Origin: a virus
Taxonomy: Duplodnaviria; Caudoviricetes
Strand: one strand, 5' to 3'
DNA: 64,000 bases
IMG/VR virus record: IMGVR_UViG_3300026522_000024
Span: 1 to 64,000 of that record
Under the pieces are notes generated by a model that saw only the letters and a program-made list of their open reading frames with translations, was not told the DNA's origin and ran no database searches. Position 1 is the first letter of the stretch, and the number at the start of each line of letters is the position of its first letter. A program made the position numbers and the translations under genes. This document shows, in pieces, positions 27,846 through 64,000 of the stretch.

Positions 27846-29255
27846 ATGGTAACTGTTAATGATATACTAGATGCTGGCTTATTAGCCAATGGAAAGTTAC
27901 CAGATATATACTGGGAGTTGAATTTATCTGGCACTGAATTAAAAGTGCTTAGATATGTGTACAGTAATTGCCTTAGATTATACCGTACACTTCCTATTTT
28001 TCCAAAGGGAAAAGATGGTTCTCCTAGATTCTGGAGAGGCAAAGAAAAGATGGCGGATGACTGTGGCATGTCATACCCTACTTTTCGTAAAAGCGTAAGG
28101 AATCTGTATAATCTGGGTATACTTACTTCTATGGATGGAATAGAAGATGAGGATGAGATTTATTGTATAGGTTTGAAGCCTGACTTCCTTAACTCTGGAC
28201 TTTTACAGACCGAAAAAAATTTTCGGTCGCATTCTAAAAAGGAATTACTGTTATTACTTTATAATAAAGATACTGTAGAACTAATAGAAATAAGTTTAAG
28301 AGTAGAAATAGAAAATAATCCTTCTGTTACTAACGTAACAGAACTGGTGGAGCACCAGGATAAACCTAAGAAGTCTCATGTAAAAGTCAAGAGCAAAAAA
28401 CGTACTACAGCTTCAAAGCTAAAAACTAAAATTGTCAGAGTACCAATAATTATGCGTACTCCAGTTACAGGATTCAGAAAGCACGTCTCTGTAATACCTA
28501 AAACATTTAACCTTCAGTTTTATCAAGAAAAAAGAAGGCAGCTACAGCATATACGTACTGCTTCAGATAACAAAATCCTAGAGATAGCCAGTTACTATGA
28601 ATATAAAGCAAGAAATGCCATAGGTGCTTCAGGTTTTAGAGTTTTAGGCAAGAATTACAAGGAACACAAGAATTGGAAATTCCTTGAAAAATTATATAAA
28701 ATGTGTGAAGATAACCATTGGGATTATAAGGTATACATTGATGCTCAGTTTGATAGGGTAAGATTCTACCAGAGAAAGCAGGATTATCCGTACCTCAATC
28801 AATTCTTTTCAGAAGGAGCAATCAATGCTTATCACAGATACGTAAAAGACTACAAGGAAAAATACTCTACTACTGGCAATGCCAAAGTTAAGACTGAAAA
28901 GGTACAGTCTTTTGCAGAGCAAGTAGCAGATAAAATCGTAAATGACTGCGAAAGAATGTCTACATATATGAAGTCAGCTTCTAAGCGTAGAAGTACAAGC
29001 GAATTAACAGCAGAGCAAGTCAAAATAGTGTATATATCAGAACACTGGATGGGGTTATCTTATTTCTATCTTTCCAGTATTCCTTGGTTTATGACCTATT
29101 TAGACCAGCTTCCAAAGGAGCAATACATTGAAGAACTGTCAGAGCACATACGAACTATACAGAAGTCAAAAAGTCTATCAGATAAAGTTACCAATATCGT
29201 AAGAGTAGTTGAGTCTCAGATGGATATACCGCCAACAATGCTTCTTGAGCAGTAA
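27846..29255 (+). CDS. Replication initiator-like HTH protein
   Basis: N-terminal wHTH (LSGTELKV...MADDCGMSYPTFRKSVRNL..LG); lies between the two helicases. Confidence 0.6.
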   Translation: MVTVNDILDAGLLANGKLPDIYWELNLSGTELKVLRYVYSNCLRLYRTLPIFPKGKDGSPRFWRGKEKMADDCGMSYPTFRKSVRNLYNLGILTSMDGIEDEDEIYCIGLKPDFLNSGLLQTEKNFRSHSKKELLLLLYNKDTVELIEISLRVEIENNPSVTNVTELVEHQDKPKKSHVKVKSKKRTTASKLKTKIVRVPIIMRTPVTGFRKHVSVIPKTFNLQFYQEKRRQLQHIRTASDNKILEIASYYEYKARNAIGASGFRVLGKNYKEHKNWKFLEKLYKMCEDNHWDYKVYIDAQFDRVRFYQRKQDYPYLNQFFSEGAINAYHRYVKDYKEKYSTTGNAKVKTEKVQSFAEQVADKIVNDCERMSTYMKSASKRRSTSELTAEQVKIVYISEHWMGLSYFYLSSIPWFMTYLDQLPKEQYIEELSEHIRTIQKSKSLSDKVTNIVRVVESQMDIPPTMLLEQ

Positions 29256-29305
29256 TTGGAGGTAGGCTTTGTTTACTTTAGTTGTTGTAAATAGGGGGTG
29301 ATGTA

Positions 29306-30700
29306 ATGTCTGACGTAGGTGTATACAAATTTACAGCTAGAATTCAGATAAAAATACTGGCGGTCTTGTGGCGTGACCAGTTTTCGTTTAATCTATACAG
29401 GGATGTAGTCAAACCAAAGTATTTTTCTAACGCAATTCATGTAGACATGTGTAGAATAATCTTTGACTACTATAATCAGTACAACCTTCCTCCTACTGCT
29501 GATGTTCTTACTGAAGAAGTAAGCACAATGTGTGGTAAATACAAGAAGAAGGAAAAGCTGCTGGATGACTACTTGAATTGTATAGAGACAATGTCCAGTG
29601 TTAGTTTGGACGATATTGAGTATATCAGGGATAAAGTAATAGCATTCGGAAAGCGTCAGTCACTGGTAGACGCAGTGTTGGAGAGTGCTAATATACTGGA
29701 GAAAGAACCAGATACAGAGTATCCTAAGATTGAAGGGTTAGTCAAGGATGCCCTTATGACTGGTGAAAATCTAGCAGATTTAGGCACAGACATATATGAA
29801 GACGTAGAAGAGAGATTCTTGTCTTATACTAATGATGATGACGTAATTGAAAGAATACCTACAGGTATAGAAAAATTGGATTCCTGCCTTGGAGGTGGAC
29901 TAGGTAGAACAGAAATGGGAGTAATAGTAGCACCTCCAGGACGTGGAAAAACCACCTCACTCATATCTATAGGTGGCGCTGCTGTAGAAGCAGGATACAA
30001 TGTACTTCATATTTCTCTGGAGAACAATGAGAAACAGGTTACTAGAAACTATGATTTAAGACTGCTGAAGAAGAACATGGAATATGTTAAGGACAATGTA
30101 AACAAGTCTATAACTGCTATGTTCAATATCCAGAGGTATAGAAAAGGTCAACTCAGAATAAAGAAGTATCCAACCAAGTCAGTAACTACACAGACCATAC
30201 GTATGTTTTTGGATAAACTGAAGATGGTAAAGGGATTCGTACCAGACATACTTATTGTAGACTATGGTGCTATTTTGAAGCCTATATCAAATTACAGTGA
30301 TAAACGCATGGGAATTGAGTCTGTGTATGAAGAACTTAGAGCAATTGCTGATGACTATAATTTGGCACTTTGGACAGCTGCCCAAGGTAATCGTGGAGCA
30401 CTATCCAAGAAAATAGTGTCAATGGTGGACTTGGCTGAGTGCTTTGCTATTGCTAATATAGCTGATGTTATGGCTTGCTTATGTCAGACTGCTAAGGAGA
30501 AAGTCAAGGGAGATTTAAGGCTGTTCCTGCCTAAGATTCGTGATAACCCAGATAACATTATCCTCAAAGGCAAGATTCTGTACGAAATCAAGAAGATAGA
30601 AATGTATGATGTAGTAGAGAATACAGATGACGATGATGAGGAAGAAGAATCAGATGACTGGGAAAGTGATAAGAAACCTAATAAGAACAAGAAAGGGTGA
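29306..30700 (+). CDS. DnaB-like replicative helicase
   Basis: IPTG...LD..LGGG; APPGRGKT; ISLEN; IVDY; WTAAQ. Confidence 0.9.
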   Translation: MSDVGVYKFTARIQIKILAVLWRDQFSFNLYRDVVKPKYFSNAIHVDMCRIIFDYYNQYNLPPTADVLTEEVSTMCGKYKKKEKLLDDYLNCIETMSSVSLDDIEYIRDKVIAFGKRQSLVDAVLESANILEKEPDTEYPKIEGLVKDALMTGENLADLGTDIYEDVEERFLSYTNDDDVIERIPTGIEKLDSCLGGGLGRTEMGVIVAPPGRGKTTSLISIGGAAVEAGYNVLHISLENNEKQVTRNYDLRLLKKNMEYVKDNVNKSITAMFNIQRYRKGQLRIKKYPTKSVTTQTIRMFLDKLKMVKGFVPDILIVDYGAILKPISNYSDKRMGIESVYEELRAIADDYNLALWTAAQGNRGALSKKIVSMVDLAECFAIANIADVMACLCQTAKEKVKGDLRLFLPKIRDNPDNIILKGKILYEIKKIEMYDVVENTDDDDEEEESDDWESDKKPNKNKKG

Positions 30701-30705
30701 CTCCG

Positions 30706-31821: not shown

Positions 31822-31822
31822 C

Positions 31823-39775: not shown

Positions 39776-39833
39776 AAATATAGTGTGTGCTAAGCTATCG
39801 TAAATCTGTCTGAGTGAAAAGGAGAGGACAAAA

Positions 39834-40601
39834 ATGAAAAAGACCTATGAAATGAACGGAAAGACTTATGCAACCCTGAGTGCTATTGCGAAGGAACTGG
39901 GAATTGCCCGCATTCGTTCCAATCAGCTGGACAAGTATGGCATCAAGAAAGTTACCTCTGATGACGTGAAGAAGGCTGACGACACTGTAGTTACCAATGA
40001 AGTTCCTGCTACTGTTGACGTTGCTGCAGACAAGGCAGACGACAAGGCAGACGACAAGGCAGACGACAAGGCAGACGACAAGGCAGACAAGAAGGTTGAT
40101 GCTCCTGCTACTACTGTTGACACCGCTACGGACAAGGCAGACGAAGCAGACAAGAAGGTTGATGCTCCTGCTAAGAAGGCTAAGACCACCAAGAAGGTTG
40201 TTAAGACTGGGACTGCTGAGGACATTGCTGAAGTCGAGAAAAACGTAGTTGACATGAACGCACGTGAGCTGGGCAAGGCAGTTACTAACTTTACGGTGGA
40301 TGCATTGGTAACCATGGTGAAGAATGTTGATGGCAACACCTGGGATTCCATCAAGAATGCTCCTATTCGTAAGATGCGTCTCATCATGGAACTCAAGAAG
40401 CAGTATTTCCCTGATGAAGTACGTCAGGCTGCTCCTGCTAAGGTGTCTCCTTGGAAGGCAATTACTACTGAGGTTTTGAAGAAGGCAGCTAAGAAGCAGA
40501 AGATTAGCTGGGCTGAGTGCGACAATGATAGCATTAACCGCATGCGTATTATCATGGCTCTGAAGAAGAAGGGAGTGCAGGCAGAGGATTTGAATAAGTA
40601 A
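39834..40601 (+). CDS. Putative early DNA-binding protein (N-terminal HTH, DKAD linker, two small helical repeats)
   Basis: NGKTYATLSAIAKELGI; IRKMRLIMELKK and INRMRIIMALKK repeats. Confidence 0.6.
   Translation: MKKTYEMNGKTYATLSAIAKELGIARIRSNQLDKYGIKKVTSDDVKKADDTVVTNEVPATVDVAADKADDKADDKADDKADDKADKKVDAPATTVDTATDKADEADKKVDAPAKKAKTTKKVVKTGTAEDIAEVEKNVVDMNARELGKAVTNFTVDALVTMVKNVDGNTWDSIKNAPIRKMRLIMELKKQYFPDEVRQAAPAKVSPWKAITTEVLKKAAKKQKISWAECDNDSINRMRIIMALKKKGVQAEDLNK
40029..40088 (+). repeat. Coding tandem repeat (GACAAGGCAGAC)x5
   Basis: Five exact 12-bp units encoding DKAD. Confidence 0.95.
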
Positions 40602-40658
40602 ACAAAACATGGAAAGTAGTGGGGCAGCTATAGTTGCTGCCCCTGTGAGGTGATAAAT

Positions 40659-40961
40659 ATGAGCACTAAATACTTGATTCACGCTTTTAGCAGTACTCAG
40701 AGATTGGTAGCTACTAAGAAAAAGCCTGGTGATTGGCTTCTCACTAAAGAGTGGCGTTCAAATGCTAAAGAGGAATGGAGGGTTGGTAAAGGCATTTCCC
40801 TTCCAAGGGTAGCAGGCAAGAGTGTAGCTAATGACCTTGGATACCTTCTGGTGAATGATGGTTTAGTACAAGGTTTTGAGATTATTGACGAGAGAACAGG
40901 AGAGTCAAAACATGAAGAGAGTACCCATAGTAGGCATAAGAAGTCCAATTCAAGGAATTGA
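40659..40961 (+). CDS. Hypothetical protein
   Basis: RBS gaggtg; follows a GC hairpin at 40621-40643. Confidence 0.55.
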   Translation: MSTKYLIHAFSSTQRLVATKKKPGDWLLTKEWRSNAKEEWRVGKGISLPRVAGKSVANDLGYLLVNDGLVQGFEIIDERTGESKHEESTHSRHKKSNSRN

Positions 40962-41589
40962 GCGAACTCCAATACATATTGAGCGTATTCCTTGGGATGA
41001 TGTTTATAAGAAATACGTCAATTACATCAAATTCGCAGCAAAGTCTACTGCTCAGGATAATGAGGGCAATTCTGCTGAGGACTTGTTTCAGGAAGGTCAG
41101 TTGATTATGTATAACTGCTACCTTTTGTACGGAGATAAGCCTATTGAGGAATTTGGGGCTATCCTCAAAGCGTCAGTCTGGCGTAAGATGCGTGAAATCT
41201 GTAACAGGAAGCAGTTTATACAGGTTAACATTGAAGATGCTTATGACATCGGATATGATGAAGACACTGTAGAAAACATATATCAAGAGCAGAAACTTGC
41301 TCACCTGGCTAGTATGTTAGAGGATAACCCTATTGCTTTGACTATTCTCAAGGAGTTTGTTTCTCCATCTGCTAGAACCATATGGGAAGCAAAGATGGAT
41401 GTAGCCCGCAAAGAAATGTTGCGTTCTCAGGATTATAAGGTGAGCGTGCCCAAACAGGTTCAGCCTACTAAGGCATCTATCCAGAGAGCAATGGAGATAC
41501 CTAAGTCCAAATTTGAACAGCATTTCAAGGAACTGAAGGAAGCAATGCTAGTGGTATATCCAGAGCATCAGTTACAAATGTGCGTGTAA
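40912..41589 (+). CDS. Phage RNA polymerase sigma factor-like protein
   Basis: Region 2-like 'SAEDLFQEGQLIMYNC...F...LKASVWRKMREI'; C-terminal HTH-like segment; RBS aggag. Confidence 0.65.
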   Translation: MKRVPIVGIRSPIQGIERTPIHIERIPWDDVYKKYVNYIKFAAKSTAQDNEGNSAEDLFQEGQLIMYNCYLLYGDKPIEEFGAILKASVWRKMREICNRKQFIQVNIEDAYDIGYDEDTVENIYQEQKLAHLASMLEDNPIALTILKEFVSPSARTIWEAKMDVARKEMLRSQDYKVSVPKQVQPTKASIQRAMEIPKSKFEQHFKELKEAMLVVYPEHQLQMCV

Positions 41590-41641: not shown

Positions 41642-42049
41642 ATGGCAACTATTGAAGAAATGATTAAGAATTCCAGCTGCTTTGGTGTAGCTTTTGATGG
41701 TTCTGTACGTGAGTGCAAAATTTGCGAGGTTAAACTGAAGTGTGAGAGCAAGTGCCGTTTGGGTGGGGATTCTAAGCCTGCATCAGTTAATGTGGCTACT
41801 GCAGATGAAGTTACTCACAGCAACAACAAGAAGGCAACCAATAAGAAGTCTGTTCCTGTTAAGAAAGCAGCAAAGCCTAAAGCTGAATATGCTGATGATA
41901 TGCCTGACTTCAAGTCTATGTCTGCTGATGAGATTGAGCAACTGGCAGAGGAACGTGGCATTGACATGTCTCAGTTTGAGAAGTATAAGGCAGCAAACAT
42001 CAGACGCATGCGTGTCACAATGGCTCTGAAAAAGACTTACGAAAAGTAA
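41642..42049 (+). CDS. Cys-rich protein with C-terminal helical repeat
   Basis: CFG...ECKIC....C; C-terminal IRRMRVTMALKK shared with 39834. Confidence 0.6.
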   Translation: MATIEEMIKNSSCFGVAFDGSVRECKICEVKLKCESKCRLGGDSKPASVNVATADEVTHSNNKKATNKKSVPVKKAAKPKAEYADDMPDFKSMSADEIEQLAEERGIDMSQFEKYKAANIRRMRVTMALKKTYEK

Positions 42050-42115: not shown

Positions 42116-42766
42116 ATGGCTACTATGGAAGAAAAAATCAGGAAAGCTATGGCTGAATTAGGACTTGACCCAGATGGTGGGGATGATAATGATAAGTCTA
42201 CAAAGGTTACAGTAAAGACAAAGCAATTAGAATCCACTAAAAAAGAGTCAGTTTCCAAACCAACACAAGCGGTTGTACCTAATAAGAAGGCTGATGTTTC
42301 GGAAAAATCAAAAAGGGCTGCAGTAGTGACAGAGAAGAAAGTAGAAACACAAACTGATGTGCAAGTGCCTCAGTCTATTTTCATGAAAATCAGTGGCAAT
42401 CACATGGTTCTCCTTATTCCAGAAGGGTTGGAATTGGATAAGCAGGTTATTGGAGGTAATACATATAACACTGTAGCTGTACAAGTGCCAGATTTTGGTG
42501 GTAAACTGTATGAAATGCCATTGATAAATACTGCTCACACTGTTTCTAAGTCCAATACTGTAGTTAGAGTGCCTATTATTATGCCTAAGACTGAGCCCAG
42601 TCAATTTTCTAACGATGAGTATCTGGAAAACTTATTGAAGGAGAAAAGTAGACTAGATGCTGAAATTAAGGCTGCTAGAGCAAGTCATGATGATAACCTT
42701 GTCAATGATTTAAGAAAGCAACGTAGAAGCATTAGAGCACGTATAAACCATATTGTGGAGGGTTGA
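42116..42766 (+). CDS. Hypothetical protein
   Basis: RBS aggaggt; C-terminal coiled coil; contains RVPII. Confidence 0.65.
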   Translation: MATMEEKIRKAMAELGLDPDGGDDNDKSTKVTVKTKQLESTKKESVSKPTQAVVPNKKADVSEKSKRAAVVTEKKVETQTDVQVPQSIFMKISGNHMVLLIPEGLELDKQVIGGNTYNTVAVQVPDFGGKLYEMPLINTAHTVSKSNTVVRVPIIMPKTEPSQFSNDEYLENLLKEKSRLDAEIKAARASHDDNLVNDLRKQRRSIRARINHIVEG

Positions 42767-42767
42767 C

Positions 42768-43493
42768 ATGAACAGAGTGCCTATAATACATAGGGTGTCT
42801 ATTTATCGTAGGCACTCTATTTATCGTAGAACATCAGTATACCGCAGAAAGCCATTATACCCAGAGTTGTCTAAGTTTAGGACTTGTGAGTTATTGTATA
42901 ATAACAGTAATTGGTGTAAAAATAATGGCAAATACATCATTAGATGTATGGAAGCAGGTTTTGATTTCAATAAGGTAGCTAATGCTATTTCTTACGGAAG
43001 AGAACACAATAAAACTGCTAGACTTATAGTGGATTTTGAGGTAGATGAAAGAATACTGTGGGCTGCTTCTTATGCTGACCATAATATATTACAGATAAAT
43101 GTATTTTTGTGTAAAAAAGACCTGTCATGGGTAGGAAGATTATCCCATATTGCTAATAAGTGTGGAATGATTGTAGTATTATTCTTGTTTCCGATTGTAC
43201 CTAACAGGATAATGCCACATCACGTGCTTAGAGTCATTGATATGGTAAAGAATCTGCCCTCTCAGTATATAATGCTTAGGTTTGCTGAGTCTAAATCAAG
43301 ATTACTAGAACACGGTAATTGGATGAATATCAATGGAAAAGCTGTAGATAAGAGATTTATACAAGTAAATAATGAAAACTGGGGTTGTTCTCCTTTATTT
43401 AAGGAGAGATTTATGAAACTAATCATGGAGTATACAGAACCAAGGGGAATTAAAATTGGAGTTTGCGGAGATAGCGAAAACTGCATCATGTAA
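42768..43493 (+). CDS. Hypothetical protein, possibly a degenerate radical-SAM/SplB-like barrel
   Basis: 'VVLFLFPIVP...VLRVID...IMLRF' and C-terminal 'GI.IGVC' resemble SplB-like folds, but there is no CxxxCxxC. Confidence 0.35.
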   Translation: MNRVPIIHRVSIYRRHSIYRRTSVYRRKPLYPELSKFRTCELLYNNSNWCKNNGKYIIRCMEAGFDFNKVANAISYGREHNKTARLIVDFEVDERILWAASYADHNILQINVFLCKKDLSWVGRLSHIANKCGMIVVLFLFPIVPNRIMPHHVLRVIDMVKNLPSQYIMLRFAESKSRLLEHGNWMNINGKAVDKRFIQVNNENWGCSPLFKERFMKLIMEYTEPRGIKIGVCGDSENCIM

Positions 43494-43515: not shown

Positions 43516-45327
43516 TTGGCTTTGAGACAAGTAGAACTAGATAAATTTTTATCAGTATCATTTCCTTGTAGATTAAATAAGCCTTTGTTGGTAAACATCA
43601 GAGGTTGTAATGGTTCTGGAAAATCCACAATACCTATTATGATGATGAATACTGACCCTTATGCCTTTGAGGTAGTTTGGTATAGAAATAACAAAAAACG
43701 TGTAATCTGTACAGTATTCCCATCATATGAATTCTTGGCTGTAGGTCATTATCACTCTAAGTGTGGAGGAATGGATTCAATAAAGGACACTCAGGAGGTC
43801 AAAGACTCAGTACAAGCATTGTGGAACTGTAAAATGAACATACTTATGGAAGGAATCATGGCGTCTACAGTATATAAGACTTACGCTGACTTGTTTTCTG
43901 AATTAAATAGTGATAACTCCAGAAAAGTATTGGTGTTTAATTTAGTACCTCCACTAAGCACATGCTTAGATAGGATACAGTCTAGGAATGGTGGTAAACC
44001 TATTAAGAGTGAATTGGTAGAGGGAAAATGGAAAACTGTATGTAGAAACCATGAAAAGTTTTCTGACGCAGGTTTTACTAGCATAAAGGCTGATAACTCT
44101 GAGATTTCTATAGGTGACACATTAAGTTGGTTCTTTGAAAAAATCAATTTTCGTACAGATACCTTTACAGATAAAATGATAAGTGCTTCTACTGCGGTAG
44201 AGTCAATTGAATATACAGATAAAAATGGAAAAATGAAAAGAATCAGGTCACTGCCAAAGTTTACTGGTACTCCAGAGCCAATTTATATACCTACTAAAGA
44301 GGATACAGAAGGGTATGAGTGGTCTAAATATTACAAAAAGCCCAATAAAAATATGGTTATAAATTGGGATAACATGAGGCTATATTGGTACTGGATAACT
44401 GAGAGAATGAGGATTTGGCACAGGAGAACAATTCTTAGAGAGCCATTCCCTTGGACTGAAGACAAGATTCTACAGGATAACAAATTCACTAATTGCTTCA
44501 GGGATTTGGATAGAGGTACACTTGTATACATCAGGGAGATTCTAAGGAAATTAGATGAACCTTGTGAAGATTTAACAAAGCGTATTAAGGAAGTCATACT
44601 AAACACACAAGTATATAGAATGTTTCTAAAGTATTCTACTTGGAAAAAGATAGGATTCTTGTATCTGGATACCTATGAGGAACAATGGGAGCAAGCCAAG
44701 GAAAAACTAAGAACTGCTAAGGCTAATGGTGAGGTTATATGGCACGCAGCTTATTTTGTTACAGACTTAAAAGCTGCCAATCCTAACCCTAAGACCAATC
44801 ATGACAAGCTGGAAAATGCTTTATGCTTATGTGAAATGTTTTATGAGTACTTAGACGACACCTATGAATATGTCATAAGTCATGATATGAAGGATTGTTT
44901 AGAGCATCTTGGACATTTTCCAGAGATAAAAGGATTCTCAGTATATGAATGGCTGTGTGATTGGGGGATGGCTTATAGATACGTGAAGAACTATTTTGTA
45001 AACTGGACAGACGACAGTTATGTAAATGTTGGTCCAGGCAATAGAATGGGGATGGATTTAATCTTTGAGGACAAAGGAGGTTTGGACTACCCAGAGTTGA
45101 ATTTCTATCTCAGAGCCTCATGGAAACACTACATGAAAAGGTATGGGTACTATGATGAGTTCATTTCTTTAATTCCGAAATGGATGAATGGTAGTGTAAC
45201 TGTTAGAACCATAGAGCATGATATATGTGAGACCCAGAAATACCTGAATATATACTATGGTATAGGCAGGACTAAAAGCAAGTTCAAGAATGAATCCAGA
45301 AATAACCTAGATTCACTAGTACTGTAG
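43516..45327 (+). CDS. P-loop kinase fused to 5-hmdU DNA kinase helical domain (aGPT-Pplase1 family)
   Basis: IRGCNGSGKST N-domain; ER..IW.RR....PWTEDKILQ..KFTN.FR.LDRGT; GPG...G; IEH..CE..KY. Confidence 0.8.
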   Translation: MALRQVELDKFLSVSFPCRLNKPLLVNIRGCNGSGKSTIPIMMMNTDPYAFEVVWYRNNKKRVICTVFPSYEFLAVGHYHSKCGGMDSIKDTQEVKDSVQALWNCKMNILMEGIMASTVYKTYADLFSELNSDNSRKVLVFNLVPPLSTCLDRIQSRNGGKPIKSELVEGKWKTVCRNHEKFSDAGFTSIKADNSEISIGDTLSWFFEKINFRTDTFTDKMISASTAVESIEYTDKNGKMKRIRSLPKFTGTPEPIYIPTKEDTEGYEWSKYYKKPNKNMVINWDNMRLYWYWITERMRIWHRRTILREPFPWTEDKILQDNKFTNCFRDLDRGTLVYIREILRKLDEPCEDLTKRIKEVILNTQVYRMFLKYSTWKKIGFLYLDTYEEQWEQAKEKLRTAKANGEVIWHAAYFVTDLKAANPNPKTNHDKLENALCLCEMFYEYLDDTYEYVISHDMKDCLEHLGHFPEIKGFSVYEWLCDWGMAYRYVKNYFVNWTDDSYVNVGPGNRMGMDLIFEDKGGLDYPELNFYLRASWKHYMKRYGYYDEFISLIPKWMNGSVTVRTIEHDICETQKYLNIYYGIGRTKSKFKNESRNNLDSLVL

Positions 45328-46329: not shown

Positions 46330-47616
46330 ATGTATTGTTTACAAGGAGAAAATCCTACTAAGATGTATTTACAGTCTATTAAGGACTTGATGGCTAATGG
46401 TGATGAAGTATCCCCCAGAGGTAAGTTGGTAAAGGAACTGCGTCCAGCTTGTATTGAGTTTCTTAATCCTTATAGCAGGGTAACATTCTTGGGGGGCAGA
46501 CGAATCAATCCATTCTTTCAGGTAGCAGAAAGCCTTTGGATTCTTAGTGGTAAGGCTGACGTGGAGTGGCTGACTAAGTTTAATGCCAATATGTCCATGT
46601 TCTCTGATGATGGAAAGTGGTTTAATGCTCCTTATGGAGAGCGAATCAGAACTTGGAACAAGAATGCTCTTCACAATGTAGTTATCAATCCTATTGACCA
46701 GTTGGCTGATGCATATAGAAAGCTGGTAAACGATAAGGATACACGTCAAGCAGTTATTGTGATTAGCAATCCTATGTTCGATAACTCTAAATATACGATT
46801 GATGAAAAAGGCAAGGATATTGCGTGTAATCTTGTGATTACTTTTAAGATTCGTCATGATGCTCTCAATATGACTGTATTTAATCGTAGTAACGATACTC
46901 ACTGGGGTGTATTTGGTGCTAATCTTTGTCAGTTTTCTACTATACAGGAAACACTGTTGAACTGGCTGCGTAAGTCTGGCAATCCAGAATTGTCTAGCCT
47001 GAAGATGGGTACTTATAACCAGATTACGGATTCACTTCATATTTACATGGATTCTTATGGCTCTAAGTGTACTGATGACGTAATGGATTACTATAAGGAA
47101 AATCCAGAGGAAGAACTGGAAGTTGATTTCCTTCTTGATTCTGATAAGGGTAATTTTGAGCCTAGAATGAGGTTGTCTGCTGAAGAGTTTGATGCCTTTA
47201 TCTCAGTATTCTGGAGCGTTATCAATCCTTATCTTATGGACGATGAAACACTGGTAGACGATGAGCGTTGTGAAGAAGTATTCGGAAAAGTAGGCTTAGT
47301 AGATGGCATGTACCGCAGAGGTGTAATAGATGACTACTGGCTTATGGTAATTCAGGCAATGCTGTCTTATAGGCTGGTTAAGATGGGCATGCTGTCTAAG
47401 GCACTCAACTACATGAGTGTAATGGCAGATTGCCAGTGGAAAGTTTCTATGATGTTTTTCCTCAAGACCTTTATTTATAAGCAAGAAGGTGATATGAAGG
47501 AAGAATGCTATAACAAATTTAATGAAATTGTGAACAACATGAAACTTAGCTACTCCAACGCATTTGGAGAAGATAGCAAGGAAGTAAAAATGTTAATGAA
47601 GTACTTGGCACTATAA
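46330..47616 (+). CDS. Thymidylate synthase-family dUMP hydroxymethylase
   Basis: DTRQAV; KDIACN; RSND..WG..AN (Asn implies dUMP specificity); SLHIY; next to the hmdU kinase. Confidence 0.8.
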   Translation: MYCLQGENPTKMYLQSIKDLMANGDEVSPRGKLVKELRPACIEFLNPYSRVTFLGGRRINPFFQVAESLWILSGKADVEWLTKFNANMSMFSDDGKWFNAPYGERIRTWNKNALHNVVINPIDQLADAYRKLVNDKDTRQAVIVISNPMFDNSKYTIDEKGKDIACNLVITFKIRHDALNMTVFNRSNDTHWGVFGANLCQFSTIQETLLNWLRKSGNPELSSLKMGTYNQITDSLHIYMDSYGSKCTDDVMDYYKENPEEELEVDFLLDSDKGNFEPRMRLSAEEFDAFISVFWSVINPYLMDDETLVDDERCEEVFGKVGLVDGMYRRGVIDDYWLMVIQAMLSYRLVKMGMLSKALNYMSVMADCQWKVSMMFFLKTFIYKQEGDMKEECYNKFNEIVNNMKLSYSNAFGEDSKEVKMLMKYLAL

Positions 47617-48867: not shown

Positions 48868-49296
48868 ATGGCAGACAAGAAAAAAGACGCAAAGGCAACC
48901 AACAAGAAGGCAGCAACTGCTGTTAAGAAGGATGCTAAGGCAAAAGTTGAGGTAGGTACTGTAGCTAACACTGGTGACATTGTGAAGGGTATTGCTGATT
49001 TGAGCAAGGACACTGACCGCAAGATTTCACAGGCTGATGCAGCTCATGTGATTCGTCTGATGGCTCAGGCAGTTGGCAATGAGATTGCTAAGGGCAAGCG
49101 TGTACAGCTCACTGGATTTGTTACATTCTATCCGTCTTACCGTGGTCCACGTAAGGGCAATAACGTACTGACTGGGGAGTCCATGGACATTCCTGCTGGA
49201 GTTGCTCTGATGGCTAAGGCTGCTGGTCCATTGAAGGACATCACCCATAACATGGATGAGAAGATGGTCAATGCCATTAAGGCTATCAACGAATAA
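48868..49296 (+). CDS. HU/IHF-like DNA-binding protein
   Basis: G.RVQLTGF.TF...R..RKG.N..TGE...IPA. Confidence 0.88.
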   Translation: MADKKKDAKATNKKAATAVKKDAKAKVEVGTVANTGDIVKGIADLSKDTDRKISQADAAHVIRLMAQAVGNEIAKGKRVQLTGFVTFYPSYRGPRKGNNVLTGESMDIPAGVALMAKAAGPLKDITHNMDEKMVNAIKAINE

Positions 49297-49433: not shown

Positions 49434-51170
49434 GTGAACTGCGATAAATGCGAACTCTGTAAGGGAGTTTCTAACCCACTAATAATGGGAGAGGGCAGTG
49501 GAAAATCCAGGGTTATGTTTATACAGGACTGTCCAGGAGAATTAGACGATAAGCACGGACAACCATTTTATGGTAAGTCATGTAATGCCGTGAGAACTGC
49601 GATGGAAAATCGTGGGATAAGCGATGTCTATTTCACCTCCTTGGTAAAATGTTTAGCACCTAACGAAGAACCAAAACCTGCTCATATAGAGCAGTGCTTA
49701 GAGTACCTAGAATCAGAGATAGAGGTGGTTGACCCAGACATTATAATTCCTACTGGGAATAAATCACTGAAATACTGTATAGGTAGGGTTGGAATAACCA
49801 AGGTAAGAGGCAATGCTCAGGAAGTAGAAATTTGTGGTAGAACTAGAATTGTACTGCCTACAATGCATCCACGTTCAGTACTGAAAAAGCCAGCCTATAA
49901 AGAGTATATCCTAAAAGACATGGATACTCTAAAGGATTTGTACGACAATGGAATGACAGAGGTTTCAGGGGTAGACTACAAGTATTTGGAAACTGTTGAG
50001 GATTGCGTAAAAGAAATAGTACGTATGAAGAATGAGGCTAAAATACTTAGCTTTGACTTGGAGACAACAGGAAAGTCTGCTTATATGGATTACTCTAAGA
50101 TTGTTTGTATAAGTCTTACGGATAAGACTCATTATGGAGTAGTAATACCTCTGTATAAACATGATTCCCCAATGAGCACTCAGGAAACTGGATTCATAGT
50201 AAAGCTGTTGAGGTGGTTACTGGAAGATGAATCCATACCTAAAGTAGCACATAACGGTAAATTCGATATTGAGTGGCTAAGAGATTGGTTAGGAATTGAT
50301 GTAAAGAACTTCTCATTTGACACCCTGTTGGGTCACTACTTAGCTGTATCAGAAGAGCAAGGTACTCAAGGATTGAAGAGTCAGGCTTGGGAGTTTACTG
50401 ATATGGGTGGGTATGACAATGAATTGGATGAGTACAGGGGTAAGCTATCTGATGGAGAAGGAGTAAATTCCAGATACAACTATGATAGAATACCTTGGGA
50501 TATATTGAAGACATACGCTGCTGCTGATGTAGACTGCTGCTTGAGATTGTATGAAATATATAAGCCTATGATTGAAGAGAATGACAAGTGGAGTATTGTT
50601 ATGAATGATATAATGATGCCAGTAAGTTATGCTCTGAGAGATATAGAGTCCAATGGAATGAAGATGGATGTTGATATTTCCAAAAAGTATAAGAACAGCT
50701 ATGCTGAGGAAATAACCAGAATAACAGATAGGCTAGAAAGCTATCCAGAGGTATTGGACATTGAACGTGAAAAGCGTCAGCTGTTTCAGGAGAGAGAACT
50801 GATAAAGTCAATACCTAAGAAGGACAGAACAGATGAAGAGCAAAAGAAATTCACGGAGTACAAAAAGTATGAGAATTTCAAGTTTAACTGGAATAGTGTT
50901 AATCAGCTGCGTGAATTGCTGTATGATAAGCTAGGGCTGGTGACGTCAGTACTCACAAATAAAGGTGAATTAAGTACCAGTGAGGAAGCAATGAATGAGA
51001 TAAGAGAGCAGCATGAGATACCAGACCTGCTCTTAGAACTCAGGAAAATTAGCACTCTGAATAATATGTTCATACAAAAGCTGCCTGAAATGGTGGATTC
51101 TCAAGGGATAATACATCCTAGTTTTAATTTGTCTGGAACGGTTACAGGACGTTTGAGTAGCGAGAACCCT
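49434..51170 (+). CDS. DNA polymerase family A, exon 1 (family-4 UDG-like domain + 3'-5' exonuclease + start of pol domain)
   Basis: C..C.LC...GEG...VKC...HP (UDG); FDLETTG, HNGKFD, YAAAD (exo); ends TVTGRLSSENP. Confidence 0.92.
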
Positions 51171-52120
51171 AGAATTGCGTGATGTTGGGGTTGTAAAATA
51201 GGGTGAACCCAAGTACTGGGGTGTGCACTACACGTTTAGTAACTACAGGAAATGGTAGCTAAGTAGTGTGCTAACAGGGAACTCTGAAATGAAAATCCTG
51301 TGCCAAGCTAGTGAAAGCCATAAAAGTAGCTAGAAGGTCAAACGACTAACAGGTGAGCAGGCAAGCAATACTCCTGACACGAGTGCCCTATAAGGTTGAG
51401 TATATATAGGTAGATGCTGGAATATAATTTTGGTAACTGTTGGATATTACCCTTTGAGGTGATATTTATGAGATACACAAGACTAGAGTTTATTCCAGGT
51501 TATGAAGGTTTGTATTCTATAACAGATACAGGAGAGGTATATAGCTGGAAATCTAATAGGTTTATTAAACACTACGTAAGACCTACTAGGGAAAACCATG
51601 ATAAGAAACATAATTATAGGTGGATAAAACTAAGTGGAACTTCTTATCCAGTTCATAGGTTAGTGGCTATGACTTATATACCTAATCCTGAAAACAAGCC
51701 TGAAGTGAATCACAAAAATTTTATAAGAGACGATAACAGGGTAGAAAATCTGGAATGGGTCACCAAAAAAGAGAATGAAGAACATAAAAGAATGAACAAT
51801 CCAGAGTTTTATGCTAAGCAATTAAGAGAAGCACAAAAGGTAGCTTGGAAAGTGTGTAGCAAAAAAGTTACTATAATAGAAAAGGATGGGACTACACATA
51901 ACTTTGAGATGCAAAAACAAGCTGTAGCTTGGCTAGGAATAACACTTAGAGTATTTGAGGCTTGGCTTAGCAATCCTGTTAGAATACCAAAAGGGTATAA
52001 AATTATCAAGGAAAATCATACTTATAAAAACCCGTACTCAACTGAATGATATAGTCTGACCTTACAAGAATAGAAATTGTAAGAATTTTAGGATAAAGAG
52101 CCTAAAAGATAACATAAGTG
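51171..52120 (+). mobile_element. Group I self-splicing intron in the DNA polymerase gene
   Basis: 5' exon ends in U and pairs with IGS (aaccct/ggggtt); intron ends in G; P7 gacta/tagtc (R gtcaaacgacta, S gatatagtct); P8 gttgagta/tactcaac flanks the ORF; splicing restores SSENP-NAQQFPR. Confidence 0.92.
51468..52049 (+). CDS. Intron-encoded NUMOD4-HNH homing endonuclease (I-HmuI-like)
   Basis: [15 protein letters not shown]; [22 protein letters not shown]...NLEW.T..EN. Confidence 0.9.
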
Positions 52121-53182
52121 AACGCACAACAATTCCCAAGAAAATCAGAGAATCCGTTATCTTTTCAATACCACAATGAACCTAAAGCACTATTTGGTTC
52201 TAGGTTTGGGAGTAATGGGTGTGTAATGAATGCTGACTATTCTGCTCTGGAAATGAGAATTGCTTGTATTATAAGTGGTGATGAAGCACTTACTAAAGCG
52301 TTGTTATCTGGTAAAGACCTTCATAAATCAACTGCTTCATTAGTATGGGGAGTACCAGTTGATGAAGTACCCAAGGATATGAGAACACGTGCAAAGTCTG
52401 TGAATTTTGGCATCATCTATGGAAAATCTGGCGTAACATTCGCTAAAGACCTTTATTATGACCCTTCAGGTGAAAATCCTAAGAAAACTGATGATTGGGA
52501 TAAAGCCAAGGAGGAAGGACTAAAGCTGGTAAATGACTACCTGAATACCTTTAGTGGACTGAAGCGTTGGTTGGAAAGAACCAAAAAATTTGCTTATAAG
52601 TATGGGTACGTTGAGACTATGTTTGGTAGACGCAGAAGGCTTCCAGATTTACATTCTAAAGTGCCTACACTGAAGAGCAATGCTGAGAGACAAGCAATCA
52701 ATGCTCCTATACAGGGTACAGGTTCAGATTTGACAATGCTTTCTATAATCAATATCAATCGTTGGCTAAAGGAAAACAACAAAAAGTCAATGATTATAGC
52801 TACAGTACACGATAGTATTGTATTTGATGTGTATATACCAGAACTTCCTGAGCTGTCTAAGAAGGTTAAGGAAATAATGGAGAGCGTTCATGAGCCTTAT
52901 ATTGATACTGTCGTACCCATTATTTCAGATTTAGAGTTGGGAGTTAACTATGGAGCCACTTTTGAAGTTACTTTGGATGAGTGTATGAATATACATAATT
53001 CTCAAGAGTTTAAGGAGTGGAACCATGAAAAGTGCTTATCTAAATACAGGAAGGAAATCAAGGAATTACATGGAAAGGGATGGGAATACAAAGAAGTGAT
53101 TGATTTCCTGTCTAAGCACAACAGACCCATCAAGGAATTGTTTAATGATATTGTGGAGGAATACTCTCAAGAATCAAGTTAG
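52121..53182 (+). CDS. DNA polymerase family A, exon 2
   Basis: ADYSALEMRI (motif A); R..AKSVNFGIIYG (B); TVHDS (C). Confidence 0.93.
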   Translation, partial: NAQQFPRKSENPLSFQYHNEPKALFGSRFGSNGCVMNADYSALEMRIACIISGDEALTKALLSGKDLHKSTASLVWGVPVDEVPKDMRTRAKSVNFGIIYGKSGVTFAKDLYYDPSGENPKKTDDWDKAKEEGLKLVNDYLNTFSGLKRWLERTKKFAYKYGYVETMFGRRRRLPDLHSKVPTLKSNAERQAINAPIQGTGSDLTMLSIININRWLKENNKKSMIIATVHDSIVFDVYIPELPELSKKVKEIMESVHEPYIDTVVPIISDLELGVNYGATFEVTLDECMNIHNSQEFKEWNHEKCLSKYRKEIKELHGKGWEYKEVIDFLSKHNRPIKELFNDIVEEYSQESS

Positions 53183-55022: not shown

Positions 55023-56120
55023 ATGGCTAAAAATGTGAAGCGTAAGCCAGTAATAACTCCAGAGGAAACAGATGAAGATGTGCAGTTTCTTCAGGAATTA
55101 GCTGATAAAGTCAATAAAACCTTAGAGCGTGATACCATTATGGTAGGTGACAACGTAGGTGACTCTAATGTACCATATTGGATATTGACTGGTATTCCAG
55201 CATTGGATTTTGCTATTGGTGGCAAGTGTCATCCAGGCATTCCAGGTGCTAGAATTACAGAGATATTTGGTCCAGAGGCAGTTGGTAAATCTACGCTCAC
55301 ACTGTGGATAATGAAGCAAGCTATAGAGCAGCAGAAGGCTATTGCTTATCATCAGGACGCAGAGAGGGTGCTTACTCCAGAAATCATTAAGGGTACTGGT
55401 ATTAACATGAATAGAGTTATGCGTGACCAACCAGATACCTTAGAGGAAGCATTTGACGCACAGGAAGCAATGCTAGAGGAATTGCAAGGCAGAAAGAGTG
55501 CTGTAGTAACCATACTGGATTCAATTGCTGCTTGCTCTACAATGGCTGAGATTGAAGGGGACATGGGAGACCAACAGGTTGGTAGCCATGCTAGGGTAAT
55601 GAGTAAGGGGTTGCGTAAGATTAAGTCAGCAATTCTTGAGTCTTATGTCCTTTCACTTTGGGTTAACCAGACTAGAGAGAAGATTGGTGGAACTTCTTGG
55701 GGAGATAATACTACTACATTTGGTGGTAAGGCAATGTCCTTCTATGCTTCTGTACGTATAAAGCTGTCTAAGATTAAGACGCTGAAAAAGAACAAGGACA
55801 GTGATGCCTATGGTTGTACTATTGAGGCTACTGTTGTAAAAGATAAGGTAGCACCACCACTGCGTAAGGCTCACTATGATATTCTCTTTATTCAAGATAA
55901 AGATGGAAGCTATCCAAAGTTGGATATTGAGGGTGCTTTGCTTGATTGGTGTAGAGATAATGATTTAATTGGTGGTAATAAGTCATCTGGTAGATACGAA
56001 CTCAATGGCAAGAATTTGTATAGAGACCAAGCCAGGCGGATGCTTATGGATGACCCAGAATTGTTTAGAGAAATTTGGGACTTGGCGTATTCATTGGCTA
56101 CTCCATTGGAATCTGAATAA
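55023..56120 (+). CDS. recA: RecA-like recombinase
   Basis: TG...LD.AIGG; GPEAVGKST; DAE; DSIAA; NQ.REKIG; GGKA..FYASVR. Confidence 0.92.
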   Translation: MAKNVKRKPVITPEETDEDVQFLQELADKVNKTLERDTIMVGDNVGDSNVPYWILTGIPALDFAIGGKCHPGIPGARITEIFGPEAVGKSTLTLWIMKQAIEQQKAIAYHQDAERVLTPEIIKGTGINMNRVMRDQPDTLEEAFDAQEAMLEELQGRKSAVVTILDSIAACSTMAEIEGDMGDQQVGSHARVMSKGLRKIKSAILESYVLSLWVNQTREKIGGTSWGDNTTTFGGKAMSFYASVRIKLSKIKTLKKNKDSDAYGCTIEATVVKDKVAPPLRKAHYDILFIQDKDGSYPKLDIEGALLDWCRDNDLIGGNKSSGRYELNGKNLYRDQARRMLMDDPELFREIWDLAYSLATPLESE

Positions 56121-59956: not shown

Positions 59957-59969
59957 TGAGGTGATTATC

Positions 59970-61570: not shown

Positions 61571-61572
61571 GA

Positions 61573-61610
61573 GAAAAGCACTATCCTATAAAATGGGTAG
61601 TGCTTTTCAT
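61573..61610 (+). terminator. Terminator hairpin
   Basis: gaaaagcactatc / ggtagtgcttttc. Confidence 0.7.
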
Positions 61611-61675
61611 ATTTAGCTGAGATTTACTATGTGGTTTCTTTACTTATATAAATGTGTTTTATAGGGGGTATCACA

Positions 61676-63034
61676 ATGGTAGATGAAATTAAGGCAGCAT
61701 TTAATGCATTGGATTCAATCGAGGAAGTATCTTCATTGAATTCAAAGCAGGAAATTTTACAGGAAAATGCAGATAATAAGGTGCTAAAGAACCTACTGTA
61801 TTTAGCATACAATCCTTATCTTCAGTTTTATATCAAGAAAATCCCTGTTTCTATTGACTCTTGCACTAATAATGAAGTGCTTCCTGTAAGATACCAAGAA
61901 TTTTTGGATATGCTAGTAGACTTTAGCAAGCGTAGAGTAACTGGTAATGAAGCTATCAATGAATTGTCTGTATTCCTGTCTGGATGTAATCCTGAAGAAT
62001 ACAAGTGGTATACCAGAGTTATCGGTAAGGACTTGTGTATAGGTTTGGCTGATAAGGGTATCAATAAGGCATTCAAAGGACTCATTCCTACGTATGAAGT
62101 ACTATTAGCTGACAAGATAGCACCTGAAGACCTGGGACTTAATACACCTAAAGCATTGAAGCAGCTGCCAGACAATATAGTCACTCAGTACAAAATAGAT
62201 GGATATAGACTTAACATACACCACTTGGAGTCTGGTGAGGTTATTATCCGTACTAGGAATGGTAAGTATGTTAAGGGGTACAAAGACCTTGAAAAATCTG
62301 CTACTAAGCTACCTAGAGGATTTGTGTATGATGGAGAAATAGTAGCACCTGAGTTGTTTGATTGGATTCAGAGTAATGTGAAGTCTCACTCTAATGAGGT
62401 TATAGCCAATAGAGATTTGTTCTCTGAGGTAATGAGTCATGCCTTCTCTAAGGAGGACAACAAGAAGGGAATTTTCAATGTCTTTGATATGATTCCTATT
62501 GACGAGTGGGTTGTTAGGAAGTCTACCCAGACCTATGAAGAAAGACTGAATAACCTCAATAAAATGGTAAAGCCATTAGAACTGAAAGACATAATGGTAG
62601 TGCCTACTTCCAGAGTGTATCATAAGTCTAATCCAGATGACCTGAAGGAAATAGTAGAACAATTCCATCAGTTTGTAAACATTGGCTGGGAAGGACTTAT
62701 GGTAAAAGATGCTGACTCCTACTATGAGTGGAAGCGTAGCAAAAGCCTGTTAAAGATGAAACTCATGGACACTATAGATTTAGTAGTTACTGATGTCTAT
62801 GAGGGTACGGGAAAGTATGAAGGAATGATGGGTGGTGTATACTGCGATTATAAAGGCTATCAGCTGGGTGTTGGCAGTGGTTGGAATGACTCAGACAGAA
62901 AGACTTACTGGGACAATAAGAATAACATTGTAGGTAAGACTATAGAGGTAGCATACCAGGCTGAGACTAAGAATAAAAATGGTGGCTTATCACTGAGTTT
63001 TCCAGTATTTAAGTCTATCCGTATAGACAAATGA
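61676..63034 (+). CDS. ATP-dependent DNA ligase
   Basis: KIDGYR; DGE; EGLMVK; KRS..LLK.K; L.FPVF...R.DK. Confidence 0.93.
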   Translation: MVDEIKAAFNALDSIEEVSSLNSKQEILQENADNKVLKNLLYLAYNPYLQFYIKKIPVSIDSCTNNEVLPVRYQEFLDMLVDFSKRRVTGNEAINELSVFLSGCNPEEYKWYTRVIGKDLCIGLADKGINKAFKGLIPTYEVLLADKIAPEDLGLNTPKALKQLPDNIVTQYKIDGYRLNIHHLESGEVIIRTRNGKYVKGYKDLEKSATKLPRGFVYDGEIVAPELFDWIQSNVKSHSNEVIANRDLFSEVMSHAFSKEDNKKGIFNVFDMIPIDEWVVRKSTQTYEERLNNLNKMVKPLELKDIMVVPTSRVYHKSNPDDLKEIVEQFHQFVNIGWEGLMVKDADSYYEWKRSKSLLKMKLMDTIDLVVTDVYEGTGKYEGMMGGVYCDYKGYQLGVGSGWNDSDRKTYWDNKNNIVGKTIEVAYQAETKNKNGGLSLSFPVFKSIRIDK

Positions 63035-63047
63035 TGAGGATAGAACA

Positions 63048-63341
63048 ATGGAAAATGTAGTGAAAAAACGCAAGAGAAGTGTAAAACTAACTAAGGAAAA
63101 ATCTTTAGAGTTACAGAACAACATAAAAAGTCAAATAACTGAACACATGGGAAAATACGCTATTCTCTTAGAAAAGACTAGCAGAAATGTATTTTCCCAT
63201 TTCGTACTGATAACACACAGTGGAGGTAAGGAAGCATTTTATGACGAGAATGGCAATTTTAGATGCTATCTTACCAGACCTATTGACCCTATTAGAATAA
63301 TGACAGGTGAACAGTCTATTGTTTACCTAGACCAGATATAA
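63048..63341 (+). CDS. Hypothetical protein
   Basis: RBS gagga. Confidence 0.55.
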   Translation: MENVVKKRKRSVKLTKEKSLELQNNIKSQITEHMGKYAILLEKTSRNVFSHFVLITHSGGKEAFYDENGNFRCYLTRPIDPIRIMTGEQSIVYLDQI

Positions 63342-63354
63342 AGGGGTGAATCCT

Positions 63355-64000
63355 TTGAGAAAATCCATAACTAAGATTAAGAGACACCCTATAACCACCA
63401 AAGTCATCCGAAAACCCATACTAGCATTCAATAGACGCAATGCTGAGATGAATCCTAAATTTCTTGATAAGGAAGTACTGTTAGAGAGATTTTCCCCATT
63501 AATACAATCTATGTACAGATACTTCTGTTCCTATGATGGAATGTTTAATCAGCAAATGGATTCTCAGGACTTGTATAGTCAGATTCAGTCAGAATTCATA
63601 GAACTTACACATAAGTATGACCCACGTAGGGGTGTAGATTTTACAGGGTATATCAAGTTTCACCTAAGACAAAGAGTATACCACTGGGTGATGAAAACCC
63701 AAAAAGTACAAAATACTGAACAAGTGCTTGTTCAATACGATAGTGATGATACTATGGATATGGATGACCTAGTATCATATGAGGACAAGAAAGATACCTA
63801 TACGGAACACGAATTAGTTAGGGCTGAAGGAATAGCCAGTATACCATGGGATAAAATCCAGGATAAAGAACACATAGAACTCATAAATGAAATTCTTATA
63901 AAACGTCATTCTATAGAGGATATAGCAAAGAGCAGGAAAACATCTGTAAGGGCAGTTACTACTCAGTTTGAGGAATTATGTCAGTTGATATATAACATAC
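63355..64000 (+). CDS. Second phage sigma factor (partial, runs off the window; not in the ORF track)
   Basis: Translated by hand: LLERFSPLI...QDL....EFIEL..KYDPRRGVDFTGYIKFHLR (sigma region 2); C-terminal SIEDIAK...SV.AV (region 4 HTH). Confidence 0.8.
   Translation, partial: MRKSITKIKRHPITTKVIRKPILAFNRRNAEMNPKFLDKEVLLERFSPLIQSMYRYFCSYDGMFNQQMDSQDLYSQIQSEFIELTHKYDPRRGVDFTGYIKFHLRQRVYHWVMKTQKVQNTEQVLVQYDSDDTMDMDDLVSYEDKKDTYTEHELVRAEGIASIPWDKIQDKEHIELINEILIKRHSIEDIAKSRKTSVRAVTTQFEELCQLIYNI

Follow-up and report, generated by a model that had tools for sequence, protein, structure and literature searches.

A short R-x-P-I peptide in the tails and linkers of unrelated proteins of an uncultivated SPO1-like phage, a possible docking or address tag

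Cells and phage T4 use shared docking peptides to organise replication and transcription. To our knowledge, none has been described for SPO1-like phages of Gram-positive bacteria, and the way in which these phages join transcription, replication, DNA modification and packaging is the question on which the peptide described here bears. This peptide, R-x-P-I, recurs in proteins encoded by the virus record IMGVR_UViG_3300026522_000024 (Duplodnaviria; Caudoviricetes). The stretch analysed (the window) consists of the first 64 kb (64,000 nucleotides) of this complete record of 116,104 bp, which has direct terminal repeats; coordinates beyond the window are those of the genome. By its sequence the virus is an SPO1-like phage, of the Spounavirinae in the family Herelleviridae, with a large terminase (TerL) at most about 50% identical to those of cultured phages. 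An earlier note, made from the letters of the window, had proposed that a motif R-x-[P/S]-[I/V] in protein tails recruits transcription, replication and recombination proteins to one hub.

The peptide and the proteins that carry it

In the window, all carriers are encoded on the plus strand. A middle sigma factor resembling gp28 of SPO1 (40912..41589; 31-34% identical to sigma factors of the gp28 family in tblastn comparisons, with homology starting at about residue 25) opens with a tail of 27 residues displaying RVPI (40918), RSPI (40939), RTPI (40963) and RIPW (40984). The last of these may not be a true copy, because it overlaps W28, the first conserved residue of the fold. The gp34-like late sigma factor (63355..64000, with the gene ending at genome position 64026; Pfam Sigma70_r2; 31% identity to SPO1 gp34) begins in a similar way, with RKSI at 63358, RHPI at 63382 and RKPI at 63409. 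Open reading frame (ORF) 42768 (42768..43493), located at the position of SPO1 gp27.1, codes for a Cys-rich protein without a match in Pfam or PHROG; its N-terminus is an array of five tandem copies spaced by six residues (RVPI, RVSI, RHSI, RTSV and RKPL, 42774-42857). RecA (55023..56120; Pfam RecA, E 2e-57, match from residue 24) has RKPV at 55041 in an N-terminal extension, and the baseplate wedge protein (12931..13494; BW3TFN, Pfam PF25691) starts with MAIRLPITTT, where RLPI is an insertion at 12940. Other copies are internal. A Rep-like protein (27846..29255; phrog_14232 and phrog_1098) fuses an N-terminal domain to a domain of the gp20.1 family, residues 185-467 being homologous to SPO1 gp20.1, and RVPII (28437) and RTPV (28455) stand in the linker between the two. 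In ORF 42116 (42116..42766) RVPII is found at 42566, some 65 residues from the C-terminus.

The six examples quoted in the earlier note were all recovered at their places, and nine carriers come in addition, eight of them past the end of the window (the ninth is the baseplate protein). At the N-terminus, we find the large terminase (81242, MSIERVPIIT), a GIY-YIG/NUMOD3 endonuclease (105649, MKRTPIF), ORF 66314 (MDRHPIIT) and ORF 67101 (MAEIERTPI), a homologue of SPO1's leftmost gene. At the C-terminus, there are two copies in ORF 71850 (…RHPVVTRKPIVTKS), and one each in ORF 77238 (…RVPIITH) and in the glutamine amidotransferase (GATase) of thymidine modification (79593, …RTPILI). ORF 93649 is doubtful, with RRPV at residue 40 within a different N-terminal leader. 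As judged from the translations, the tag is thus present on about fifteen unrelated proteins, in floppy ends or linkers. The whole-genome motif listing leaves the PolA-type polymerase, the helicases and the primase untagged. The list of clients extends further than transcription, replication and recombination, for a baseplate protein, the terminase, an enzyme of DNA modification and a homing endonuclease belong to it as well.

Chance composition does not account for this distribution. ORFs were called on the whole 116-kb genome (148 ORFs, 36,530 residues) and motif counts were set against 2000 within-protein shuffles. R.P[IV] occurs 21 times, against 6.5±2.5 in the shuffles, none of which reaches 21; within 40 residues of a terminus, the figures are 17 observed and 2.1 expected. 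Longer forms stand out further (10 against 0.9 for R.P[IV][IV], 5 against 0.02 for RVPII), and 13 proteins have a terminal copy where 2.2 are expected, with a shuffle maximum of 9. The arginine is specific, since K.P[IV] shows no enrichment (8 observed, 12.3 expected). As a guard against post-hoc choice of the motif, 15,864 patterns of four residues, exact or with one wildcard, were scored in the terminal 30 residues of the proteins: R.PI came first (11 proteins against 0.73, p 3e-10) and RVPI second. The doubt raised in the earlier note, that there might be no enrichment over composition, is answered by both the shuffles and this unbiased ranking.

A profile built from 291 instances gives the full form as [IV]-x-R-x-[P>S>A]-I-[IVT]-[GTS]. 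Around an invariant R at position 0, position -2 is I or V in about 70% of the copies in sigma factors and about 60% of those in TerL, and position -1 is variable, often E or Q. Downstream, position +1 is T, V, I or Q; position +2 is P, replaced by S or A in some arrays; position +3 is I in more than 90% of instances; V, T or I follows at +4, and G, T or S at +5. One to five copies stand in tandem, at a spacing of 6-8 residues, and the tagged segments are slightly basic (net charge +2.3 over 26 residues in the sigma factor, +0.7 over 18 residues in TerL). These are the traits of a short linear motif in the sense of ELM, namely three to ten residues with few fixed positions (here R, P and I, while -2, +4 and +5 are semi-conserved), disorder outside folds (a coil in the modelled sigma factor, extensions, an interdomain linker), and gain in non-homologous proteins together with conservation among orthologues (about fifteen carriers; the sigma-28, TerL, sigma-34, baseplate and gp20.1 families). 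We regard R-x-P-I as a genuine motif of this kind, apparently gained and lost freely, in N- or C-terminal tails or in linkers between domains.

The location of the copies follows from several observations. In an AlphaFold2 (AF2) model of the gp28-like sigma factor, based on 55 homologues and with a mean predicted local distance difference test (pLDDT) score of 88, residues 1-27 form a coil (pLDDT 65-71) that leads into the first helix, beginning at W28. In TerL, RecA, the gp34-like sigma factor and the baseplate protein, the tags are in extensions that are missing from the orthologues of the cultured phages SPO1, SP-10 and EalM-132 and from those of G001, an IMG/VR contig with 54% TerL identity; in the Rep-like protein the tag separates the N-terminal domain from the gp20.1-like domain. 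Together with the multicopy arrays, this bears out the initial impression of copies outside folded domains, often in tandem. Sequence searches of the PDB with the sigma tail and with ORF 42768 returned nothing useful. The tails also belong to the true N-termini, a point on which the proposal could have failed: Shine-Dalgarno sites (AGGAG, GGAGG, AGGAGG or GAGGTG) precede the tagged start codons by 6-10 nt and are absent before later in-frame starts, and homologues keep the tails. As cases in point, AGGAG is found 9 nt before the ATG of the gp28-like sigma gene, GGAGG 6 nt before that of ORF 42768, and AGGAGG before that of recA.

Is it the peptide or the DNA that matters? The arginine of the motif is encoded by AGA (11 copies), CGT (6), CGA (2) and AGG (2), proline by its four codons and isoleucine by ATA and ATT, in proportions that are roughly typical of the genome. 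The segments IVRVPIIM (28431) and VVRVPIIM (42560) differ at synonymous positions. The Shine-Dalgarno site is the sole common element upstream of tagged starts, and Tandem Repeats Finder detected no tandem DNA repeat at the tagged tails. Since codons vary among copies, and since the upstream DNA is alike only in its Shine-Dalgarno site, selection acts on the motif at the level of the peptide.

Two hexamers, TTGACA and TATAAT, are found across the start of ORF 42768 (42764-42788), and it is the codons for Pro-Ile-Ile in RVPII that make up the second. With a spacer of just 13 bp, they are probably there by coincidence. A translated promoter or an iteron (CCTATAAT in the RVPII codons at 42774, with TTGACA upstream) was considered and rejected in view of this short spacer, the lack of a tandem repeat, the variable codons and the unrelated upstream DNA.

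Conservation in the uncultivated clade and in cultured relatives

Conservation within the uncultivated clade is, in our view, the strongest result. Several hundred homologues keep the motif, most of them at 45-86% identity. About 75 of 85 metagenomic homologues of the middle sigma factor (44-98% identity) display one to five tandem units of the form [IV]-x-R-x-P-I-[VT]-G-[IV] before a conserved W-D-D-V-Y, while the x positions of the unit vary freely. For the late sigma factor, about 40 of 44 homologues start with M-x(2-10)-RKPI followed by a conserved NRRNA, and three have RKAI. TerL homologues (53-99% identity) begin in 64 cases out of 120 with one to three copies right after the initial methionine, then with an acidic DDLLxxDS segment. 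In most of the tagged ones (P0112-P0196) this acidic segment, DDLLxxDSxxS…L..L..E, is conserved after the tags, and the untagged TerLs do not have it; the extension may comprise it as a second module. For the baseplate wedge protein, the nearest cluster representatives (P0250, P0252, P0256 and P0387) have RLPI, RLPV or RQPI; the SPO1-like majority start with MAITT, and SPO1-type orthologues read MAITT..GHVSRAL, with no tag.

Less known carriers behave in the same way. Orthologues of ORF 42116 have the internal tag equally far from the C-terminus, within diverged flanks (KRVPIISEP in the relative L077, KRQPIIVEK in L078). Those of ORF 42768 retain the array, as RVPI RVSI RHSI RVSI RKPI in L077 and RTPV RKAI RTAI in L078, with P, S or A at +2. 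An orthologue of ORF 71850 keeps a C-terminal tag, RKPIVARKSVK, and further, new carriers turn up in the contigs of relatives. One displacement is instructive. The tag, which is at the C-terminus of the GATase here, stands in a relative at the N-terminus of the adjacent amino-acid:DNA transferase (AADT; compare 79593-81229 of this genome with 4549-6212 of L074), and this move between two neighbours suggests that one tag may serve the pair of enzymes. Across a large uncultivated clade, one easily recognisable peptide thus marks the terminase, RecA, both phage sigma factors and other proteins. Scans of IMG/VR retrieved only near-identical relatives and G001.

The cultured relatives tell a different story. 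SPO1, SP-10 and EalM-132, and G001 with them, display no proteome-wide enrichment in the tag, and their TerL, sigma and RecA orthologues are without it (SP-10 RecA included), so that the expansion is specific to the clade of our phage. Yet SPO1 gp20.1, gp21.4 and gp27.1, encoded in the replication and middle-gene region, have N-terminal copies (for example MSIERKPIKFRNPI and FIRKPIKIPRKSI), and their EalM-132 orthologues are tagged too, at 24-44% identity. When gp20.1 proteins are aligned, the motif is seen just N-terminal of the conserved domain in the present phage, in SPO1 (RKSI), in EalM-132 (RKPI) and in G001 (RISI), and it is lost only in SP-10. This common position indicates that the tag is old in the subfamily and was greatly expanded in the clade. 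The conservation expected in the earlier note was therefore found in part, in four families of the uncultivated clade and in three of SPO1 and EalM-132, but not in the cultured TerL, sigma and RecA orthologues; on none of its three tests (enrichment, true N-termini, conservation) does the proposal fail outright. Since SPO1, which is amenable to genetics, itself encodes three carriers, the question of the tag is directly testable.

Two features of the genome may be added here. Genes for a 5-hydroxymethyldeoxyuridine (5-hmdU) DNA kinase, an AADT and a GATase are present, and for this reason the thymidine of the phage is probably hypermodified, as in SP-10. The full set, at 43516-45327 and 46330-47616 in the window and at 79593-81229 in the genome, comprises the 5-hmdU DNA kinase, a dUMP hydroxymethylase (a thymidylate-synthase homologue), the AADT and a stand-alone amidotransferase. 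A gene for a DHH/DHHA1 phosphoesterase adjoins the set in relatives. The DNA polymerase region (49434-53182), which in L077 and L078 is a single UDG-exonuclease-PolA fusion of about 930 residues, is here in ORFs of 582 and 354 residues. An ORF of 211 residues (51414-52049), homologous to an SPO1 ORF at 104330, is found between the two pieces, and the split looks like the insertion of an intron or homing endonuclease, as in SPO1 gene 31.

A candidate reader and the competing explanations

Any function has to accommodate what is observed, namely the enrichment, the terminal or linker location, the peptide-level selection, the conservation and the variable valency. As a general mechanism, we lean slightly towards a docking or address tag that would act independently of its position in the protein. 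One common reader would recognise the invariant Arg, the Pro and the beta-branched hydrophobic residues on a peptide in extended form, and the number of copies would set avidity. The phage would thereby bring together in one place its sigma factors, terminase and RecA, its Rep-like protein and homing endonuclease, its DNA-modifying enzymes and part of its assembly proteins. That there is a single common reader is something we infer, and the same holds for what this reader might be.

Among specific readers, the leading candidate, put forward tentatively and at low odds, is a transcription-replication condensate formed on phage DNA by counterparts of SPO1 gp27 and gp25.1. According to a 2026 paper (PMC13401047), the transcription machinery of SPO1 is concentrated in condensates driven by Gp27; Gp25.1 forms condensates as well, more weakly and of small size. 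The Gp27 condensates bind DNA via a Lys-rich disordered region and RNA polymerase via a C-terminal two-helix domain. Middle and late transcription are stimulated by them, and the paper lists Gp27 as required for replication and for the expression of late genes (PMC13401047). Our phage has a homologue of gp27 (41642..42049, plus strand; 33% identity, E 9e-23) that aligns over almost the full length of gp27 and has the same layout, in which a Cys-rich domain at the N-terminus is followed by a disordered stretch rich in Lys and, at the C-terminus, by a two-helix module. It also codes for a gp25.1-like protein (39834..40601, plus strand; E 2e-9 in a blastp comparison with SPO1 gp25.1), in which a disordered region made of DKAD repeats accompanies two helical modules like that of the gp27 C-terminus. 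Both are no more than putative scaffolds. The gene row reads gp25.1-like, gp28-like sigma, gp27-like, and in SPO1 the carrier gp27.1 is directly downstream of gene 27. This condensate ranks first among the specific readers because it has been demonstrated in SPO1 and because homologues of both scaffold proteins flank the tagged sigma gene. If so, the tag might be a valency-tuned client signal sorting proteins into a membraneless factory on the hydroxymethyl-uracil-derived phage DNA, a suggestion that we make with the same reserve.

Several side observations concern these candidate scaffolds. The DKAD repeat is encoded by a perfect 12-bp tandem repeat, GACAAGGCAGAC, in five copies at 40029-40095. 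On the minus strand, an ORF of 295 residues (39795-40682) overlaps the gp25.1-like gene, with a low-complexity LVVCLVVC that is the reverse complement of the DKAD repeat; it is almost certainly not a gene. The ORF calls took it instead of the real one, and the motif counts are unaffected. The helical module, …[IN]x(R/W)MRxxMA(L/I)KK, is reused, once in the C-terminal domain of the gp27 homologue and twice in the gp25.1-like protein, then at 85568-86524, 90105-92036 and 93649-97248 in the genome and at 10037-12412, 14527-16392 and 16734-18320 in L074. It ends several large proteins, including SNF2-like and HATPase-like ones in relatives. As the corresponding domain of SPO1 Gp27 binds the beta subunit of RNA polymerase (PMC13401047), proteins with this module may, by analogy, all be directed to RNA polymerase.

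Several facts weigh against the condensate as reader, and some against any single reader. No client motif has been described for Gp27 (PMC13401047). SP-10 and G001 have gp27 homologues, yet few or no tags. SPO1's own sigma factors are untagged though the Gp27 condensate acts on them, hence Gp27 does not need the tag for this action. It is not obvious why a transcription condensate would take a baseplate protein as client; the pLDDT of the sigma tail is moderate rather than very low; and the single reader is itself an assumption. Phyletic profiling, asking for genes common to SPO1 and EalM-132 and absent from SP-10 and G001, gave no convincing reader candidate. A Pfam search of the genome revealed neither a DnaN-like clamp nor an SSB. 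It did reveal an HU/TF1-like DNA-binding protein with a Lys/Ala-rich N-terminal tail (48868..49296, plus strand; PF00216, 52.7 bits), which might be an alternative hub on phage DNA. Of the hubs imagined at the outset, the condensate thus has a published candidate scaffold in SPO1 Gp27 (PMC13401047), whereas capsid loading is unlikely, because one would not expect a terminase or sigma factors as cargo of the capsid.

Among the rivals, the one that fares best, although we hold it unlikely, supposes that the tag is read by host proteostasis, either as an Hsp70 (DnaK)-type segment helping folding or activation, or as a terminal degron of the ClpX/ClpC type timing turnover. With a basic residue ahead of a core of beta-branched hydrophobic residues, the tag resembles the model DnaK ligand NRLLLTG and N-terminal ClpX signal classes. 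The place of many tags at the extreme N- or C-terminus and the diversity of the carriers, a structural protein included, would also fit. It is less easy to understand why copies are conserved in internal linkers, why acidic residues are frequent at -1 and what multicopy arrays would be for, and there is no clear reason to keep degrons on the terminase and both sigma factors across the clade.

Somewhat less probable, and argued by analogy, is docking on a hub that tracks along DNA, such as the host beta sliding clamp, in a Gram-positive counterpart of T4. In T4, terminal tails attach the late sigma factor gp55, gp33 and the polymerase to the gp45 clamp, a machinery to which the terminase is coupled as well. 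Here, a late sigma factor, terminase, RecA and proteins of the replication module are among the carriers; the location at either terminus matches clamp-binding tails; and gene 27 connects late transcription with replication in SPO1 (PMC13401047). However, the tag, with R at 0, P at +2 and neither Gln nor an aromatic residue, does not resemble the clamp-binding consensus Q-L-x-L-[FL] (Q-L-[SD]-L-F, or Q-x-x-[LI]-x-P in MutL). The polymerase, expected to be a client, is untagged, as are helicases and primase, and Pfam recognises no DnaN-like gene in the phage itself. Arrays of three to five copies at a spacing of 6-8 residues are unusual for clamp ligands, and a baseplate protein is among the carriers.

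We consider it improbable that the tag is an auxiliary nucleic-acid-binding arm, AT-hook- or SPKK-like, raising affinity for the hydroxymethyl-uracil-derived DNA. In its favour, the majority of carriers are DNA-acting proteins, Lys is no substitute for the invariant Arg, Pro is invariant too, copies come in tandem, and the versions of SPO1 and EalM-132 are very basic, as in RKPIKIPRKSIKLP. By contrast, tagged segments are near neutral in the clade of our phage, Glu or Gln is common beside the Arg, the other conserved residues are hydrophobic, and neither the amidotransferase nor the baseplate wedge protein binds DNA. The AT-hook itself has an R-G-R-P core with basic flanks, where the tag has T, V, I or Q at +1 and hydrophobic or acidic flanks.

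Still more doubtful is a substrate site for a modifying enzyme, through ADP-ribosylation or phosphorylation of the Arg, or phosphorylation of Ser in R-x-S-[IV]. The invariance of the Arg, the possible replacement of Pro by Ser, which creates sites of the R-R-x-S-[IV] type, and the presence in the genome of a large PARP-like protein and a zeta-like kinase (from Pfam matches in relatives) would speak for it. Yet the loci examined show no modifying enzyme that would accompany the tag, a different N-terminal leader is found on the PARP-like and zeta-like proteins, and Pro, the commonest residue at +2, cannot be phosphorylated. Finally, an absence of function (accident of composition, mis-called starts, or a translated DNA signal such as a promoter or ribosome-binding-site cassette), which the hexamers at ORF 42768 and the many copies directly after start codons might evoke, is effectively refuted by the shuffles, by differing codons and unrelated upstream DNA, by the C-terminal and linker copies and by conservation in several hundred homologues.

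Relation to known systems

Literature searches on the motif, on SPO1 gp20.1, gp21.4 and gp27.1 and on clamp-linked late transcription in Herelleviridae turned up no description of the tag or of these three proteins, in keeping with the earlier note, whose author knew of none in phages. Should the condensate prove to be the reader, a phage condensate would for the first time have an 'address code', and the need for SPO1 gene 27 in both replication and late transcription would then be explained. If a reader were found, the tag would predict which uncharacterised phage proteins act at the same place, and it would provide a portable handle for sending proteins there.

The sliding-clamp tails (bacterial QL[SD]LF; the C-terminal tails of T4 gp43, gp33 and gp55 on gp45) are alike in that a short terminal peptide is common to many proteins of DNA transactions, a late sigma factor included, and in that the clients are read by one hub, gp45 in T4. 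The tag differs by its lack of Gln and aromatic residues, by arrays of up to five copies and by its baseplate carrier, in a phage in which Pfam shows no clamp gene and whose polymerase is untagged. Condensate scaffold-client pairs, such as multiple SUMO-interacting motifs (poly-SIM) with poly-SUMO, or proline-rich motifs (PRM) with SH3 domains, likewise use multivalent short motifs in disordered tails, where copy number could set partitioning. The SPO1 Gp27 condensate (PMC13401047) offers a demonstrated scaffold within the phage family, with homologues beside the tagged sigma gene; it has no reported client motif, and the SPO1 sigma factors are untagged. The capsid-targeting sequence of T4 internal proteins and the cargo-loading peptides of encapsulins are also common short terminal addresses on unrelated proteins. 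They occupy one fixed terminus (the N-terminus only, for the T4-type leader, which the prohead protease removes from its virion-internal cargo) and mark what enters a capsid or shell, whereas the present tag is N-terminal, C-terminal or internal, on proteins such as terminase, sigma factors and RecA. The AT-hook (R-G-R-P) has in common with the tag an invariant Arg and Pro, tandem copies and a location in the tails of diverse DNA-acting proteins; the tag, in contrast, is without the G-R-P core, its flanks are hydrophobic and not basic, and its net charge is near neutral in the clade. Shared docking or address peptides are thus, as a kind, already known; what is new here is the motif, the set of its clients, and an unusual independence of position combined with an unusual valency.

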